Shown here: one piece after another, positions 32,156-43,813 of the stretch
How positions within the stretch are numbered: position 1 is the first letter of the stretch
Layout of the letters: each line of letters begins with the position of its first letter
Translations under genes and position numbers: made by a program
Notes under the pieces: generated by a model
Database searches by the model: none
What the model was told of the DNA's origin: nothing
Seen by the model: only the letters and a program-made list of their open reading frames with translations
Assembly (NCBI GenBank): GCA_025058345.1
Contig: JANXEN010000004.1
Span: forward strand, 50,929 to 114,928
Reading direction: 5' to 3'
Source: Sulfolobales archaeon
Lineage (GTDB): Archaea > Thermoproteota > Thermoprotei_A > Sulfolobales > NBVN01
Length of the DNA stretch: 64,000 nucleotides

Positions 32156-32229
32156 GGGGCCGTAGTTTAGCTTGGTAGAATGCAGGGCTTGGGCCCCTGT
32201 GGTCCGGGGTTCAAATCCCCGCGGCCCCA
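32156..32229 (+). tRNA. tRNA-Pro (anticodon UGG)
   Basis: Acceptor stem GGGGCCG/CGGCCCC. T arm CGGGG-TTCAAAT-CCCCG. Anticodon arm CAGGG-CTTGGGC-CCCTG gives anticodon TGG with G37. Discriminator A; CCA not encoded. Confidence 0.9.
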
Positions 32230-32471
32230 CTAAGTGACTGAGGTTTCGGTAAGAACGATTAAGTCTACAGATATAGGTGGGTCGTAAGCCATCATCAAAA
32301 TATCCTGATTTGAGTAGTAGGAGGGTGATATTTTTAAGTAATTCCCTCCACTCTCATAAAATGGGTGGGCCCTTAATCAATTCTCTTATATATGGTTATA
32401 ACCCTGAATTGTCTCAAATGCTTCATGTGTAGATATACGTTAAAGATTTAGCAAGGCGGGTATATTTAAAG

Positions 32472-37471: not shown

Positions 37472-37993
37472 ATGGTAATCATGAGTGAGAAAATGAGTGA
37501 AAAAAGAATGAAGGCATCTCTCCTAGTAACTATATCTCTAGCCATAATTGCAATAAGTATGGTTACAGTAGTTATGTACGCCCAACCAAATAAAAAAGGT
37601 TTAGGAATAGCATCTAATAATGTTGATGATTCAAAGAATTTTGAAGTTCAGAAAATGATTAGATATCGTTACCTACCTCCAGGTAAGGGATTAGGGTTAA
37701 TTAAGAACGTCGAACTAAGTGAGGAATTCAAAAACAACATCCTAGATATATTGAGTAGTAACGAAAACACTTCTAAGTTGCTTGATGAAGGGTATGAAGT
37801 CACCTTAATTAGACCTATAATTAAACTAGTGGTTCTAGGTGATGGTAGCGTAGTATTAAAGGTTGTGGAGGTTCAAGTAACTCTATATAAGAAGGGTGAA
37901 GGAGTATTCCAAGTACTAATAGATTATGAGGCTAAGGAAGTGGTAAACGTATTTGGTCAAAAATACTGTAAATGTGCCAGCTCAACTAGTTAG
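37472..37993 (+). CDS. Membrane-anchored/secreted hypothetical protein
   Basis: N-terminal hydrophobic anchor ASLLVTISLAIIAISMVTVVMYA. No family recognised. Confidence 0.5.
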   Translation: MVIMSEKMSEKRMKASLLVTISLAIIAISMVTVVMYAQPNKKGLGIASNNVDDSKNFEVQKMIRYRYLPPGKGLGLIKNVELSEEFKNNILDILSSNENTSKLLDEGYEVTLIRPIIKLVVLGDGSVVLKVVEVQVTLYKKGEGVFQVLIDYEAKEVVNVFGQKYCKCASSTS

Positions 37994-38156: not shown

Positions 38157-38180
38157 CTAACCCGTTCTCTAACCCGTTCT
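38157..38180. repeat. Perfect tandem duplication of the 12-mer CTAACCCGTTCT, upstream of the ABC operon promoter region
   Basis: Read directly: 38157-38168 and 38169-38180 are identical. It lies about 10 nt upstream of an A/T box (38191-38200) and 46 nt upstream of ATG 38226. Confidence 0.8.
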
Positions 38181-38225: not shown

Positions 38226-38918
38226 ATGTGTTTGAGTGAAAGTTATGTAGTGCTTAAGGATGTGTGGAAAATTTACAGGACGGGCGCCGTAGAGTGGCCT
38301 GCGTTACGAGGTGTTAACTTAAGTATTGATCGTAAAACATTCACTGCAGTTATAGGTCCTTCAGGAAGCGGTAAATCCACTTTACTCAACATAGTTGGAG
38401 GTCTTGATAGACCGACCAGCGGCTCTGTCGTCGTTGGAGGTATGGACATCAGTAAACTTAATGGAAGGAAGCTAGCTAATTATAGAAACACACACATCGG
38501 CTTTGTTTTCCAGAGCTATAATCTCCTAAATTACCTTACTGTGTTCGAGAATGTGGAGTTACCTTTAGTTATTAAAGGTGTTGATAGTAGGGTGAGGAGG
38601 GATGCAGTGCTTAGCATGTTGGATATGTTCGGTCTTAGGGAGATGGCCTACAAGAGACCTGTAGAGCTAAGCGGTGGTGAGCAGCAGAGGGTAGCAATAG
38701 CTAGGGCGTTAATAAACTCACCTAGCCTCATATTGGCTGATGAACCTACTGGTAACTTAGACTCTAAGAACGCTCAAATAGTTGTGGAAGCCTTTAGAAA
38801 ACTGGTCAGCGAGCATGGTAAAACTATACTTATGGTAACCCACAATATTGAGCTTACTAAGTATGCAGACGTTATTGTTAAAATGAGGGATGGAAATATA
38901 GTTGAGGTGAGTTCGTGA
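38226..38918 (+). CDS. ABC transporter ATP-binding protein, MacB/LolD/FtsE type
   Basis: Walker [11 protein letters not shown]-loop, signature [15 protein letters not shown] and Walker [12 protein letters not shown]. Confidence 0.9.
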
Positions 38919-41857
38919 TGAGTAGGTATAAATTAATATTATGTGCGCTAATTTTCATTCTAGTAAGTCAAGTAGCGTCCTCAATGAAATTATATAGTGA
39001 GGGTGAAAAGTTTGAGGTGCTCACAGTTATATGGGGAACAGCGTCAACCCCTGCTGAGGTAGGCCCTGGGGACGTCGGGCAGCTAACCATAGTGTTAAGG
39101 ACTAAGAACTCTATTCAATCATCTACGTTAGTTGCGTATCTAGACCTACCGAAGGGATTAACTTCAATAAACGGTGAATCAACCGCTATTACATACCTTA
39201 AATATGGAGGTACTTCAATACCTGCAGGCACCGTCTTGGAACTACAATTTAGAGTTAAAATTGCGGATAGTGCTGCTTTAGGGCGACATACCGCTAAACT
39301 AACTTTAGAGTATGTTGTGGAAGTCCTCTACTATAGTAGGACGTACAGCGACGAAATATACGTAACCATACCTATAAGCGGTAGACCTGATATAAGCATC
39401 TACAGCTATCCATCAGAAGTTAATCCAGGCAAACAATTAATAACCTTCAAGTTAAGCAATAATGGAACAGCAGCAGCTAATAAAATATCCATAGATATCT
39501 CGCTTCAGCCATCTCTATTTATCAACACATCTAAAATTGAATTGAGTAATTTAACACAAAATGGCGATTCATCAGTAAGTATTGAGGCATTCATACCCCC
39601 ATCACTTTCAAATTCCACTATAACTATAACTTCATCAATAACTTACTATGGACCGCTATCAGTCCTATACTCAAAAACATTCAGAAACGTCATATATGTA
39701 AATCAGTACGAAAAACCGTTACTAGACCTTCGCACAGATTTAACTGAAGTATCAAGCAGCGCTGTATCGAATCTATACCTAACTATCATAAACAAAGGAG
39801 GTTTTGCTAAGGACTTAGTAATCAGACTGTCGACACAGCAACCACTTCAAATATGCGGTAAATCCCTTTATTTAGTAGATTCTTTAAAGTCAGGGGAAAA
39901 TACATCTCTACCTGTAAAGCTATGCGCGCTGCCAACGTCAACTGACGTAATTACACCAATTACTGTATCAGTAGACTATAGCGATGTGTATGGTGTAGTA
40001 AGCTCTAAAACATATAACCTACCCATAACTTTAAGGGCTGTTCGTGAGTCACCATTAAGTCCCTACCTAATTACTAGGGAAATACCAGGAGGGATTGAAA
40101 GTAGGTTAATGCTTAACTTAAGTAATCTAGGTAATACTTATTTGAAAAACGTAAGTGTTCAATTAACTCTCCCACAAAACATCATAGTACTTACGTTACC
40201 GCAATTCAAGTTAGATACCATTGACCCTATGGGTTTCGTAATCATTGATTTTCCGATTAAAGCGTCGTATGTTGATTCAACTACTTATTCTAAGGTAAGT
40301 TTTCAAGTAGGATATACAGACCCTTCAGGTAATTACTTCATAAATACCTACGACTTCGCTATAGTTATTAAACCGCAGGAATTACGTCCGTTACTAACTG
40401 TTAAAATTGAGCCGAAGACGTTTAACCCACTGTCGACAGGTTCACTATTGATTGGTTTGGTAAGTAGTGATGAAGTTAACAACTTAGTTGTTTCGGTATC
40501 CAATGAGGGTACACCATTGATTTTAAGCGGTAGTAAAGAGCTCGTAATAGGTAAGTTAAGCCGGAATGAGGAACGTTCCGTTAGCATTCCATATGTAGTA
40601 GGTAATAAACCTGGGACTTACTCACTCATCATTAATGTTAAATACGTGGATTCAGTCGGTGTTTTAAGGAGTTCTACACATACATATGCGATAGAGGTAT
40701 TACCACTCAAGAACGTTCTAAACATAAGTGTATACCCTTCAACAGTTTTATCAAGCAGCACTACAACCATAGAGTTTACGATTACGAATGTTGGTGATAG
40801 CCGTATTAAGGATCTCATGCTGAGTATCAATCCTCAAGGTTCAGCAATAACTTTAGCTGAGTCAGCAAAGCACTACATAGGTGATTTAGAACCGAAGGGA
40901 AGTAAGGTCTTAAAAGTTGCAGTAAGAAGTAGCTACGTATCAGCGTATACGACGGTACTTATTTCATTAGGAGTCACTTACTACGACGTTCTAAACCAGC
41001 TATACAGTGAGACGTATACGTCAACGTTAGTGGTAGAGCCTAAGACACCGTTAAGTAAGCTAGACATCACAACTAATGCGACGGAGTTAACTATAGCTTC
41101 AATCAATAACGTTGCTATAAAGTTAAGGAATACAGGAAGTGAGGTGATTGAGGGGATAAGCTATAGGATTACTTCAGGTTCTGCTTTAAACATCATCGGT
41201 GCAAACGATGGTTATATCCCAACTTTAAAACCTGGTGAATCGGTAACTATAAATGTACCTATATATGTGACCTTAACAAGTACATACACCTCGAATATCG
41301 TCCTCAGCCTTACATATACCGATAAATCTTTAGGCAGTGTTAGGAATGAAGATAAGACATTCACCTTATTGTTGAGGGGTAAGGTTGACTTAAGGGTCAT
41401 AGATTATGTGGTAATGCCTACTGCGGTGAGTGTAGGTCAAACTTTCTCGGTTTCACTTACATTAATAAACGTAGGGGTAACACCGGCGTATTCGACGTTT
41501 ATCAGTCCTGTACTTACTGGTATGCCTGTCAGAAGTGCTACGGAGGAAAGGACGATATATCTAGGTAATATTGAGGTTGGTTCAACTACAGCTGCTACAA
41601 TAACTCTACAACTAATGAACACATCTGAACGTATCGTTAGGTTACCAATAGTTATTACGTACTTAGATAATTTAAGAACACCTCAGAATGTGACATCCGA
41701 AGTAGTTATTAGGGTATCTCCATCTATGAATGTTTCCCCTACAGCATCACCGGGCAATTTGAGTAGGGGTAACGGCTCTCTACCGATTTACATGATCATT
41801 ATAATCGCCGCTGTTGCTGTGGTTGCTTTAGTTGTTTGGAAACTTATGAGGAGGTAG
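38915..41857 (+). CDS. Large surface protein: signal/anchor, eight tandem ~112-aa CARDB/S-layer-domain-like beta-sandwich repeats, and a C-terminal TM anchor
   Basis: Repeat-terminal Y-x-D motifs at aa 133, 245, 355, 468, 578, 690, 802 and 917 give a 110-115-aa period. At least 14 N-x-S/T sequons. C-terminal LPIYMIIIIAAVAVVALVVWKLMRR. The start overlaps the ATPase stop (TGATG). Confidence 0.8.
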   Translation: MMSRYKLILCALIFILVSQVASSMKLYSEGEKFEVLTVIWGTASTPAEVGPGDVGQLTIVLRTKNSIQSSTLVAYLDLPKGLTSINGESTAITYLKYGGTSIPAGTVLELQFRVKIADSAALGRHTAKLTLEYVVEVLYYSRTYSDEIYVTIPISGRPDISIYSYPSEVNPGKQLITFKLSNNGTAAANKISIDISLQPSLFINTSKIELSNLTQNGDSSVSIEAFIPPSLSNSTITITSSITYYGPLSVLYSKTFRNVIYVNQYEKPLLDLRTDLTEVSSSAVSNLYLTIINKGGFAKDLVIRLSTQQPLQICGKSLYLVDSLKSGENTSLPVKLCALPTSTDVITPITVSVDYSDVYGVVSSKTYNLPITLRAVRESPLSPYLITREIPGGIESRLMLNLSNLGNTYLKNVSVQLTLPQNIIVLTLPQFKLDTIDPMGFVIIDFPIKASYVDSTTYSKVSFQVGYTDPSGNYFINTYDFAIVIKPQELRPLLTVKIEPKTFNPLSTGSLLIGLVSSDEVNNLVVSVSNEGTPLILSGSKELVIGKLSRNEERSVSIPYVVGNKPGTYSLIINVKYVDSVGVLRSSTHTYAIEVLPLKNVLNISVYPSTVLSSSTTTIEFTITNVGDSRIKDLMLSINPQGSAITLAESAKHYIGDLEPKGSKVLKVAVRSSYVSAYTTVLISLGVTYYDVLNQLYSETYTSTLVVEPKTPLSKLDITTNATELTIASINNVAIKLRNTGSEVIEGISYRITSGSALNIIGANDGYIPTLKPGESVTINVPIYVTLTSTYTSNIVLSLTYTDKSLGSVRNEDKTFTLLLRGKVDLRVIDYVVMPTAVSVGQTFSVSLTLINVGVTPAYSTFISPVLTGMPVRSATEERTIYLGNIEVGSTTAATITLQLMNTSERIVRLPIVITYLDNLRTPQNVTSEVVIRVSPSMNVSPTASPGNLSRGNGSLPIYMIIIIAAVAVVALVVWKLMRR

Positions 41858-41860
41858 GTA

Positions 41861-43081
41861 ATGAATCCGTACGACGCATTAAGATTAGCCTGGAAGCAAT
41901 TGGTTCAACGGAAGTTGAGGACTGCTCTAACTGTTTTAGCTGTGGCTGTAGGGGTTATGGTGATAATAGCACTGTCATCACATACTCAGGGACTTTACGT
42001 TAGTTTCATAGCTAATTTCGAGAAACTCGGACCTACTACGGTAATAGTTACTTCAGCCGGGACTAGACTTTTAAGTGACACGGATTTATATAGAATTGCG
42101 GAGCTCCCTAATGTAGCCAGTGTTATACCGATGAGGAGTTTAGGCGGTAGTGTTGAGGGTTTAAACACTAGGGTTTCTATTGTTGGGGTAAGGTCGTATG
42201 AATTGAAGGAACTGCTTGGAGGGAACGTAGATTTAAACGACGGTAATCTATTTCCTGATTCACCCATACCCGCCGCAGTAGTTGGTTACAATATCGCGTA
42301 CGACCCATCTAGTGGTAGGAAATTAATTGATGTTGGTCAAGTGATTGTAGTAAGGGTCGGAAGTAGATCATTAGTCCTCAACGTGTTGGGGATACTTAAC
42401 TACTACGGTAGTTCAGTATTCCTCTCATCACCTGATGACACCATCTACATACCGTTGGAGTACTTCGTACGGTTTAGCGGAACTCAAGGGTATTCAGCAG
42501 TTATGGTTAAGGCATCCGACGTAAGTGTAGTTAGTGAAGTTGCTGATAACGTTAGGACGTTACTAGGTGCTAGAGCTAGAATTACTACAGTTCAATCAGT
42601 TATAAACACCTTCACTACGATTTTAAATCAGATAAACTTATTGTTAGTCAGTATTGCAAGCACTTCATTCATAGCAGCTGGCTTAGGAACATTTAACATA
42701 ATGATGATCTCGGTCTTAGAAAGAACTAGAGAGATAGGTCTTATAAAGGCTTTAGGGATGAGGGATTCTGAAGTATTACTCCTTTATCTAACTCAGGGGT
42801 TATTAGTTGGGATTATAGGTGGGTTAATAGGATTCGGCTTAGGTATCGTTCTATCTCATGCGTTGAGTTACGTCTTCTCATTTGGTATGGGAGCAGCGCC
42901 TGTTGGTGGAGGACCTGGTGCAGCTAGATCTTCCAACTTCGCAAGCTATACACCTATAGTAAGTAATTACTACACACTTATCGCTATATTCCTCTCAATG
43001 TTCACTACCGCGGTTGCATCTATCTACCCGTCTTGGAGGGCAGCAAGGTTAAATCCGGTTGAAGCACTTAGATATGAATGA
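41861..43081 (+). CDS. ABC transporter permease, FtsX/MacB type (TM1, large extracytoplasmic domain, three C-terminal TMs)
   Basis: LRTALTVLAVAVGV TM1, a ~220-aa loop and the FtsX-domain motif ERTREIGLIKALGM. GGAGG at 41850-41854 sits just upstream of the ATG. Confidence 0.85.
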   Translation: MNPYDALRLAWKQLVQRKLRTALTVLAVAVGVMVIIALSSHTQGLYVSFIANFEKLGPTTVIVTSAGTRLLSDTDLYRIAELPNVASVIPMRSLGGSVEGLNTRVSIVGVRSYELKELLGGNVDLNDGNLFPDSPIPAAVVGYNIAYDPSSGRKLIDVGQVIVVRVGSRSLVLNVLGILNYYGSSVFLSSPDDTIYIPLEYFVRFSGTQGYSAVMVKASDVSVVSEVADNVRTLLGARARITTVQSVINTFTTILNQINLLLVSIASTSFIAAGLGTFNIMMISVLERTREIGLIKALGMRDSEVLLLYLTQGLLVGIIGGLIGFGLGIVLSHALSYVFSFGMGAAPVGGGPGAARSSNFASYTPIVSNYYTLIAIFLSMFTTAVASIYPSWRAARLNPVEALRYE

Positions 43082-43159
43082 TAATTAGTACCAGGAATAT
43101 TAGGATTACCTACGTTACGATTTCAATTTTTGCGCTGTAGTAAAAAAGTTTGAAGGAAT

Positions 43160-43813
43160 CTAATTACGGGTTATTATATCAAACAACTCTGTTAAGTCTC
43201 TAATTACGTAAGTAGGTTCTACATTATTTAAGGTAGTATTATCCCTCGATCTCTTAACGTATACTGAAATAGCGCCCACGGATTTAGCCGGTTTTATATC
43301 GTACTCGGTATCACCAACAATTAAAGCTTCATGAGGTGGGATTTTGGTGCGTTTTAGGGCTTCGAGGTAGAGGTCGGGATAAGGTTTACTTCTAGTTACC
43401 TCTTCCCCAGCAACTAAAACATCGAAATATCCAATAATGTTGAAGTATTCTAACATGATTAGGAGCAGTGGTATCGATGTGGATGTCGCGATTGAGAGTT
43501 TAATTCCGTAGCTCTTTAAACCTTGAATGGTGTCGTAGACCTCAGGAAATACGGTAACTGCGTTATTCCTAAGTAGGTTTAAGAATATTTTATCTTTAAA
43601 GAATCTTATCGTTTTATAGTTCTTAACGGCTTCCCTCCCTAGAACCATCTCGGTTATTACATCTCCTCTAGCCCCAATATATTTACGTATCTCATCTATC
43701 GATACATTTCCATACCCAACTAATTTGTAGGCGTTTGCCCAAGCTATGGCGTGTGCTTCGTTACTATCTATTAATGTCCCATCTAAATCGAAGATGACTG
43801 CCTTAATTACCAT
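43160..43813 (-). CDS. HAD-superfamily hydrolase (beta-phosphoglucomutase/phosphatase-like)
   Basis: Motif I FDLDGTLIDS, motif II ATS and motif III VGDTEYD. Confidence 0.8.
   Translation of the reverse strand: MVIKAVIFDLDGTLIDSNEAHAIAWANAYKLVGYGNVSIDEIRKYIGARGDVITEMVLGREAVKNYKTIRFFKDKIFLNLLRNNAVTVFPEVYDTIQGLKSYGIKLSIATSTSIPLLLIMLEYFNIIGYFDVLVAGEEVTRSKPYPDLYLEALKRTKIPPHEALIVGDTEYDIKPAKSVGAISVYVKRSRDNTTLNNVEPTYVIRDLTELFDIITRN

Follow-up and report, generated by a model that had tools for sequence, protein, structure and literature searches.

A locus of three adjoining genes on the plus strand of a 64,000-nucleotide stretch of a Sulfolobales archaeon genome (contig JANXEN010000004.1; the whole stretch is hereafter called the window) encodes an ATP-binding cassette (ABC) ATPase, a surface protein of eight beta-sandwich domains, referred to here as B, and a MacB-type permease. 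The ABC part qualifies as a genuine type VII (MacB/FtsX superfamily) system, all the tested features of sequence and fold being present, and the gene for B is retained between the ATPase and the permease genes in 49 of the 53 loci with both flanks assessable. Comparison with MacAB-TolC, LolCDE and FtsEX placed the system in none of these groups, and no description of the three genes (hereafter the triad) was found in the searchable literature, where the nearest entries are unannotated 'COG1361 S-layer domain'/CARDB proteins and the isolated ATPase MJ0796. The locus is thus read as a known motor with an undescribed, archaeal-specific partner, and B is probably a stoichiometric third subunit of a physical MacB-type complex.

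To our knowledge, type VII ABC systems are understood in bacteria only, each with a dedicated extracytoplasmic partner (MacA, LolA, EnvC and others), and we know of no account of the use made of this motor by archaea, which have one membrane and a surface layer (S-layer). The locus provides a concrete and widely conserved candidate for such a partner, built from a variable stalk between a base and a head that are both conserved, and makes the question testable. An initial annotation of the window had no characterised archaeal example to name, and none was found in searches of the full-text literature.

Conservation of the gene order

The three open reading frames (ORFs) in the ORF list of the window (230, 980 and 406 residues; Table 1) are as tightly coupled as the initial annotation had described. 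The TGA stop of the ATPase gene (38916-38918) overlaps the start of B within a TGATG at 38916-38920, B being 980 residues long when read from the GTG at 38915 and 979 from the ATG at 38918, and B is separated from the permease gene by a gap of 3 nt. The GGAGG reported ahead of the permease start is present, at a spacing of 6 nt and not the 7 nt first given.

The close homologues of B (52-97% identity, all about 979 residues, from Sulfolobales metagenome-assembled genomes, MAGs) have the entire neighbourhood in common and are uninformative on linkage; distant relatives were therefore taken, by two routes. The first started from permease homologues at 32-48% identity, a choice unbiased as to B, and yielded eight contexts. 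A CARDB-repeat gene lies between ATPase and permease in six of these, namely in Fervidicoccaceae (886 residues), a second Sulfolobales lineage (1090 residues), Thermoprotei (546 residues) and three more contigs (905 residues, 641 residues and one partial copy). The second route consisted of scans with the conserved C-terminal module of B, which gave 8 genome loci (from Thermoprotei, Bathyarchaeota, Culexarchaeum, Methanomethylicia and Desulfurococcaceae) and 62 metagenome loci, many of the latter related to each other; a word-indexed homologue search with the profile of this module returned 4 matches only. All the loci of the genome scan were found through a single pattern, so that the taxonomic breadth is certainly under-sampled and the census partial.

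Among 77 loci, the ATPase lies upstream and the permease downstream of B in 49, neither ABC gene is present in three, and one has the permease only, with a truncated B ORF. The other 24 have one or both flanks unassessable owing to contig ends (the permease was seen in 16 of them and the ATPase in 3). Junctions within the triads are almost always overlaps of 4 nt (-4 nt). Among the B sequences of the 45 complete triads, 41 are distinct, 26 of them at under 92% identity; neither a fourth gene common to all of them nor a natural fusion was found. Triads occur in at least seven lineages (Sulfolobales, Desulfurococcaceae, Fervidicoccaceae, Thermoprotei, Bathyarchaeota, Methanomethylicia and Culexarchaeum), in neighbourhoods that are otherwise unrelated, and the unit is thus kept in many archaea of the TACK group. 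Loss of synteny in related genomes, which the initial annotation had named as a finding that would speak against its proposal, is clearly not what these loci display.

Two MAG loci carry apparent frameshifts or assembly errors, by which the ATPase is split in two ORFs (L009:3660-4339) or the N-terminus of B is split off as an 82-residue ORF (L005:4115-7004). In a related Sulfolobales MAG, a gene for an intein-bearing MoxR-type AAA ATPase (Intein_splicing and LAGLIDADG) lies about 6 kb upstream of the triad (L001:1-1207).

At least six lineages have a gene for a PadR-family regulator (5e-16, 1.6e-18) immediately ahead of the triad (loci L014, L020, L024, L045/L047/L049, L053, L057/L058 and L081). 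At L079:832-1401, PadR precedes a related MacB-type pair that lacks B, beside a DrrAB-like ABC pair. Genes for detoxification and efflux are common targets of PadR regulators, whose frequent presence upstream suggests an inducible role in efflux or detoxification, for example of amphiphilic toxins or peptides.

Domain organisation of the repeat protein

B matches CARDB in Pfam (3.1e-12; 47 bits against a cut-off of 22.7) and the related sandwich families NPCBM_assoc (35.2 against 24.4 bits) and TRAPPC13_C (39.9 against 27.9 bits). Each of the four Hidden Markov Models (HMMs) that the initial annotation had proposed for searches of the locus (CARDB, MacB_PCD, FtsX and ABC_tran) was matched. The AlphaFold2 (AF2) model of B (confidence score pLDDT 75.9) contains eight all-beta domains, D1 to D8, between an N-terminal helix and a C-terminal transmembrane (TM) helix at residues 958-979; the domains span residues 33-154, 160-262, 270-374, 381-486, 494-595, 602-708, 716-821 and 826-933, respectively. 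Hydropathy gives an N-terminal hydrophobic segment at 2-27 and a C-terminal TM segment at 952-980, followed by a basic tail. The description of the middle gene as an anchored eight-domain surface protein is therefore upheld, except that the N-terminal 'signal/anchor' is read as a probable signal peptide and not as an anchor, the N-termini of the family having the appearance of cleaved Sec signals.

The repeat period of about 112 residues is real. The repeats are too diverged for self-BLAST, which found no internal repeat in B, and are visible at the level of profiles and structure only; AF2 and per-domain HMMs were therefore used. The (V/I)-x-Y-x-D motif that had been said to end each repeat is strict at five of the eight sites (starting at 353, 465, 575, 687 and 914) and non-strict at the other three (LEYVV at 131, ITYYG at 242 and LTYTD at 799); VAYLD at residue 73, outside these sites, makes a sixth strict match. 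The count of N-glycosylation sequons, given earlier as at least 14, is exactly 14 (N-x-S/T), but composition-preserving shuffles yield 10.8 +/- 2.9 (P = 0.17). Enrichment was therefore rejected, the S/T/N-rich composition being sufficient to account for 14, and the argument from sequons carries no weight.

The conserved architecture of the family was examined through an exhaustive search with the B profile, which gave 1774 cluster representatives at E <= 1e-3, 117 of them at E <= 1e-30. Nearly all members have the N-terminal hydrophobic segment, the N- and C-terminal modules, the TM helix and a polybasic tail. Their lengths are quantized in steps of one domain (about 525, 640, 760, 880, 975, 1097 and 1203 residues), corresponding to a range of 4 to 10 domains, i.e. 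0 to 6 spacers. When per-domain HMMs built from the B of the window were run on 41 distinct homologues, the minimal form was found to be D1-D2-D7-D8; longer members add spacers only between D2 and D7, and the head pair D1-D2 is present in every member mapped. One homologue of 762 residues (L020) has the order D1-D2-D1-D2-D7-D8, the head pair being doubled in place of added spacers.

The N-termini across the family comprise a K/R n-region, an h-region of 12-17 residues and small residues at -3/-1, and the C-terminal helix is therefore probably the sole membrane anchor of B. As judged from these features, mature B is most likely a type I protein with D1 distal and D8 by the membrane. A hairpin topology with a second, N-terminal membrane anchor was considered and rejected, since the short h-regions and the small -3/-1 residues favour a cleaved signal peptide; the occurrence of odd as well as even domain numbers among the members also counts against it. 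Also rejected was the possibility that B is a substrate of an archaeosortase, exosortase or sortase (PGF-CTERM, PEF-CTERM, LPXTG), as the NCBIfam CTERM sorting-signal models did not match B and no conserved motif precedes the C-terminal TM helix in 42 C-termini aligned on the TM end. The anchor throughout the family is a plain TM helix followed by a polybasic tail.

Relative conservation was compared as mean pairwise identity in 26 non-redundant triads. The ATPase is the most conserved (59.8%), followed by D8 (49.9%), the permease (47.8%), D1 (36.7%), D7 (33.7%) and D2 (29.4%). On these values, the membrane-proximal D8 is as strongly constrained as the permease. D8 also holds the stretch that is best conserved in the family, and residues 853-892 (41471-41590), invariant among close homologues, have the lowest confidence of the AF2 model (pLDDT 28-45) in spite of this conservation; they may become ordered only once bound to a partner.

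A sequence search of the PDB with the B family profile gave no match, and a Foldseek comparison of the whole rod with the PDB returned generic multi-immunoglobulin (Ig) proteins only (HYDIN/ASH, macroglobulin MG domains), with no functional lead. The B family, with its head pair, variable stalk, base pair, TM helix and polybasic tail encoded between two ABC genes, is without counterpart among solved structures. CARDB and NPCBM_assoc proteins of 76-80 kDa have been detected in the culture supernatant of Thermococcus barophilus, membership of the B family not being shown there (PMC10667668), and the label 'COG1361 S-layer domain' is in use for such proteins without experimental support (PMC10694973, PMC10354927). 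The stoichiometry expected of the operon would argue against B being a bulk S-layer protein.

The ATPase and the permease

The ATPase matches ABC_tran in Pfam (5.6e-33), and its best NCBIfam models are LolD (2.5e-69), DarD, MacB (7e-62) and FtsE. Its score against LolD is 233 bits, below the equivalog cut-off of 308, and every other NCBIfam match likewise falls below its equivalog cut-off; the protein is therefore a member of the LolD/DarD/MacB/FtsE class and none of those proteins themselves. The catalytic motifs are all intact (Walker A at residue 44, signature at 148, Walker B at 168, H-loop at 205), the Q-loop and the catalytic E of Walker B also being present. The closest solved chains are Spr0694 (5xu1_A, 6e-60) and then MJ0796 (1e-57).

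The permease matches MacB_PCD (4.8e-23, covering positions 1-206 of the 207 of the profile) and FtsX (8.3e-18) in Pfam. Hydropathy, Pfam and AF2 together indicate four TM helices with a large extracytoplasmic domain between TM1 and TM2. The AF2 model, calculated from a 45-sequence alignment (pLDDT 80.8), has the canonical MacB topology, with TM1 at 18-56, TM2 at 244-287, TM3 at 302-342 and TM4 at 369-395. Its best fold match in Foldseek is the MacB of Acinetobacter baumannii (5gko, E 1e-22, TM-score 0.72), followed by LolE (3e-20) and Spr0695 (2.5e-19; TM-scores 0.64-0.66), YtrF, HrtB and YbbP; LolC is also a strong match, and FtsX appears at rank 48. The best solved match in sequence is 5nik (5e-20). 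The NCBIfam models FtsX_Gpos, FtsX_Gneg and FtsX_actino reach E-values of 6e-5 to 3e-4 (about 20 bits, against cut-offs of 225-255), with matches confined to the TM part, and lolCE is among the top models, yet at 76 bits against a cut-off of 362. The full MacB_PCD, the fold closest to MacB and the weak matches to the FtsX models thus identify the system as MacB-type and not FtsEX-type. The earlier assignment of the flanking genes to type VII (MacB superfamily) is accordingly kept, and their designation as 'FtsEX-type' is withdrawn.

The extracytoplasmic loop between TM3 and TM4 of the permease (residues 343-368; 42887-42964) is Gly/Pro-rich and disordered (GMGAAPVGGGPGAARSS..., pLDDT 34-38), and its length differs between homologues.

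Comparison with known systems

MacAB-TolC of Escherichia coli and A. baumannii (5nik, 5gko) has the same permease fold and topology as the present system (four TM helices, a full MacB periplasmic core and a coupling helix), an ATPase of the same subfamily, and an accessory envelope-spanning partner encoded in the same operon. It differs in that the ATPase and the permease are here separate polypeptides, with the gene order ATPase-partner-permease, and in that the partner is here a C-terminally anchored Ig-like rod, whereas theirs is an N-terminally anchored coiled-coil/beta-barrel hexamer. There is here no HlyD-type membrane-fusion protein (MFP), outer membrane or TolC, and neither an HlyD/MFP nor an outer-membrane factor domain was found in the operon of the window or in any of the fetched contexts. 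Separate genes for the nucleotide-binding domain and the four-TM permease are also found in the single-membrane systems Spr0693-0694-0695 of Streptococcus pneumoniae (5xu1) and YknXYZ/YtrEF of Bacillus subtilis, in which a third extracytoplasmic component is encoded in the operon. However, their third component is an adaptor of the MFP family (Spr0693, YknX), to which the CARDB rod is unrelated in fold.

The likeness to LolCDE lies in LolD being the top model for the ATPase and LolC/E a top model for the permease, and in the action of LolCDE on membrane-anchored proteins from the outer face of the membrane. The scores are, however, far below the equivalog cut-offs, a single permease gene (homodimer) stands in place of the LolC/LolE pair, B has no lipobox and is anchored by a TM helix and not by acyl chains, and there is no LolA or LolB. 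FtsEX-EnvC/PcsB/RipC belongs to the same superfamily and works on the same principle of mechanotransmission to an extracytoplasmic partner, the likeness to which the initial annotation had pointed, but the permease has a full MacB-type extracytoplasmic domain instead of the FtsX type (Porter plus X-lobe), B has neither a coiled coil nor a hydrolase domain, and a division-gene context is absent. The archaeal MJ0796 of Methanocaldococcus jannaschii (1f3o, 1l2t), the second-best solved relative of the ATPase, has been studied as an isolated ATPase only. It has been described as the closest homologue of LolD (PMC8277102), and the literature searched contains no mention of MJ0797.

Proposed complex and alternative explanations

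In the reading preferred here, the triad would constitute one operon encoding one MacB-type complex, with the rod of B as an adaptor-like third subunit; taken as a whole, this is put forward tentatively, somewhat short of even confidence. The translational coupling, a gene order kept at phylum-level diversity and a base whose conservation equals that of the permease make it likely that B is the third subunit. The motor would be a type VII ABC complex of a permease dimer and two ATPases, to which B is added as an archaeal-specific component. B would be exported by Sec and, anchored through its C-terminal helix and polybasic tail, would stand as a rod of Ig-like domains with the conserved head pair D1-D2 at the far end. 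D8, the linker and the TM helix would dock onto the permease dimer, an arrangement that is given an even chance. The lineage-specific number of spacers (0 to 6; four here) would set the reach of the rod, about 30 nm in the present case if it is extended, which is roughly how far the S-layer lies from the membrane. Driven by ATP, the permease extracytoplasmic domain would open and close (mechanotransmission) and so expel or extract a substrate from the outer membrane face, and the rod could guide the substrate or pass on the movement across the pseudo-periplasm, as membrane-fusion/adaptor proteins do in the bacterial MacAB, YknXYZ and Spr0693-95 systems. Such an adaptor role for B in efflux is considered rather doubtful. 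If the system should prove to be an ordinary PadR-controlled resistance pump with a decorative subunit, its interest would be modest.

Several points weigh against this reading. Physical contact between B and the ABC proteins is presumptive, nothing points to oligomerisation of B, and we know of no closed Ig-like sandwiches that form conduits. No gene for a substrate, a membrane-fusion protein or an enzyme lies nearby, and the window contains no PadR gene. The pTM of the B model (0.34, as expected of beads on a string) leaves the inter-domain geometry unreliable, so that the length of an extended rod is an assumption. The distance matrices of ATPase, B and permease correlate (r = 0.81-0.92), which shows that the three are inherited together, yet this is inseparable from the species phylogeny, and coevolution analysis would require more than the roughly 26 non-redundant pairs. 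Two of the eight contexts reached through the permease, a Bathyarchaeia locus (L004) and the most divergent homologue, have the pump without B. Conversely, B of about 762-767 residues occurs without ABC genes in L010 (4198-6486), L011 (2211-4502) and L029, and in L010 it adjoins a GT2 (cellulose-synthase-like) glycosyltransferase and secreted TIG/MG2 beta-sandwich proteins. The linkage of B with the ABC genes is thus strong and not obligate.

The pumps lacking B and the solitary copies of B could be taken to mean that B is functionally unrelated and merely inserted within an ordinary efflux pump. This is effectively refuted, and its probability is considered negligible, by the recurrence of the order with overlapping codons in nearly all assessable loci, at phylum-level diversity and in differing neighbourhoods, and by the correlated divergence of all the parts. 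B could otherwise be the cargo of a LolCDE-like motor, which would pull its C-terminal anchor from the membrane and free it or pass it to the S-layer or the medium. LolCDE extracts membrane-anchored proteins, and the permease fold is near LolE/LolC and the ATPase near LolD. The T. barophilus supernatant proteins mentioned above are also in line with a released product, within the limit already given on their relation to B (PMC10667668). Nevertheless, the translational coupling, the permease-like conservation of the base and the PadR-regulated pumps without B favour a partner subunit over a cargo, which is regarded as unlikely: overlaps of 4 nt at each junction imply that the proteins are made in roughly equimolar amounts, unusual for a cargo, the membrane-adjacent domain is the most conserved, and the related PadR-linked pumps indicate that the motor has a function of its own. 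Moreover, the extraction of a full TM helix whose polybasic cytoplasmic tail is conserved would come at a high cost, and no LolA-like acceptor is found nearby.

A regulator comparable to FtsEX, in which movement of the permease is passed via the rod to an extracellular enzyme or to remodelling of the S-layer or surface during growth or division, would have precedents in FtsEX-EnvC/PcsB/RipC, which are type VII ABC systems working by such transmission. The conserved distal head pair could bind the partner, and one triad locus (L080) sits among housekeeping genes. On the other hand, the permease has a complete MacB_PCD and is not FtsX-like (models at about 1e-4, fold rank 48), B is neither a hydrolase nor a coiled-coil activator and has no such conserved neighbour gene, and the PadR linkage points to stress or efflux and not to division; this explanation is considered decidedly improbable. 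Similarly improbable is a role in capture or sensing, whereby the head of the rod would bind an external ligand (an antimicrobial peptide, a toxin, a polymer or a neighbouring cell) and present or report it to the pump, much as in BceAB-type systems of target protection or flux sensing. Adhesion or ligand binding is common among CARDB-type domains (the Pfam name itself being no functional test), the D1-D2 head is conserved and is doubled in L020, and PadR-regulated contexts of the resistance type occur. However, there is neither a ligand nor a site for it that can be named, anything bound 15-35 nm off the membrane could not easily reach the permease, and the head is less conserved than the base. 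An Lpt-like bridge, with the stacked beta domains as a track for lipids or glycolipids to the S-layer, follows the same logic as LptB2FG-LptC-LptA, an ABC extractor and a single-pass anchored beta-rich protein in one operon, and the domain number could fit the envelope width. It is nonetheless very hard to credit, since the domains are closed Ig/CARDB sandwiches (HYDIN/ASH and MG matches) and not open beta-jellyrolls with a hydrophobic groove, the ABC part is type VII and not of the LptFG type, and evidence of head-to-tail oligomers is absent.

A further departure from the adaptor-like subunit proposed above is a new class of archaeal envelope machine, in which mechanical coupling would join the MacB-type motor to a stalk of Ig domains, tunable in length and reaching the S-layer; the motor would push, pull or gate something there without pumping small molecules, the spacer number acting as a molecular ruler for the width of the pseudo-periplasm. 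At the S-layer, it might insert or remodel lattice subunits, release vesicles or surface structures, or provide a path for exported material. This too is thought unlikely. If stalk length does track envelope width, it would provide a genomic read-out of envelope dimensions in uncultured archaea.

Transcription signals and neighbouring features

The coordinates of the features of the locus are listed in Table 1. Inspection of the sequence revealed no Shine-Dalgarno (SD) motif upstream of the ATPase gene, unlike both internal genes, and a TATA-like box at this gene only. From the closeness of this box to the ATPase ATG, a leaderless or very short-leader first gene is predicted. Crenarchaeal operons are usually organised in this way, with a leaderless gene first and SD motifs ahead of the internal genes. 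The perfect tandem repeat of CTAACCCGTTCT directly 5' of the box is found nowhere else in the window, and related loci carry other tandem repeats at the same promoter position (e.g. GAGTTTCAG-AAGTTTCAG in L003/L017); the repeat may be the operator of some regulator. Downstream of the permease gene, an oligo-T tract is a candidate archaeal terminator, and the next gene (43160-43813) is convergent, on the minus strand. Scans for sigma-70 promoters and hairpin terminators gave nothing beyond shuffled sequences, such signals being irrelevant for an archaeon.

Table 1. Features of the ATPase-B-permease locus (nucleotide positions in the window; aa, residues of the encoded protein)
Feature	Position	Strand	Basis or remarks
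Tandem direct repeat CTAACCCGTTCT x2, perfect, 12-nt unit	38157-38180	+	Sequence; directly 5' of the TATA-like box
TATA-like box TTTTAATAA	38191-38199	+	Sequence; about 27-35 nt 5' of the ATPase ATG
ABC ATPase, 230 aa, LolD/MacB/MJ0796-like nucleotide-binding subunit	38226-38918	+	Pfam, NCBIfam, solved-chain matches
SD-like GAGGTGA	38904-38910	+	Sequence; within the 3' end of the ATPase gene, precedes the B start
B, 980 aa: signal peptide, eight CARDB-like beta-sandwich domains, linker, TM helix, basic tail	38915-41857	+	Pfam, hydropathy, AF2
B, predicted Sec signal peptide, aa 1-23 (...VASS|MK)	38915-38983	+	h-region of about 15 residues; predicted cleavage
B, head pair D1-D2, aa 31-266, distal rod end	39005-39712	+	Per-domain HMMs
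B, spacer domains D3-D6, aa 267-712, variable-number stalk	39713-41050	+	Lacking in 4-domain homologues
B, base pair D7-D8, aa 713-936	41051-41722	+	D8 holds the most conserved stretch of the family, NVGTxxA ... YLGNIEV ... YxDNLR
B, S/T/P-rich linker aa 937-954, TM helix 955-975, basic tail KLMRR	41723-41854	+	Hydropathy; AF2 helix 958-979
GGAGG Shine-Dalgarno motif	41850-41854	+	Sequence; ahead of the permease ATG at 41861
MacB-type permease, 406 aa: TM1, extracytoplasmic domain, TM2, coupling helix, TM3, TM4	41861-43081	+	Pfam, AF2, Foldseek
Permease extracytoplasmic domain, aa 57-243	42029-42589	+	AF2 model gives 60-243
Oligo-T tract TTTTT	43127-43131	+	Sequence; 46 nt past the permease stop

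A 173-residue protein with one N-terminal TM helix and no Pfam match is encoded at 37472-37993 on the plus strand, 232 nt upstream of the ATPase gene. It was considered as a fourth component and rejected as probably foreign to the system, being kept only in close relatives with the entire neighbourhood in common. The sole RNA gene found by Rfam and ARAGORN in the 64-kb window is a tRNA-Pro (TGG) at 32156-32230 on the plus strand.

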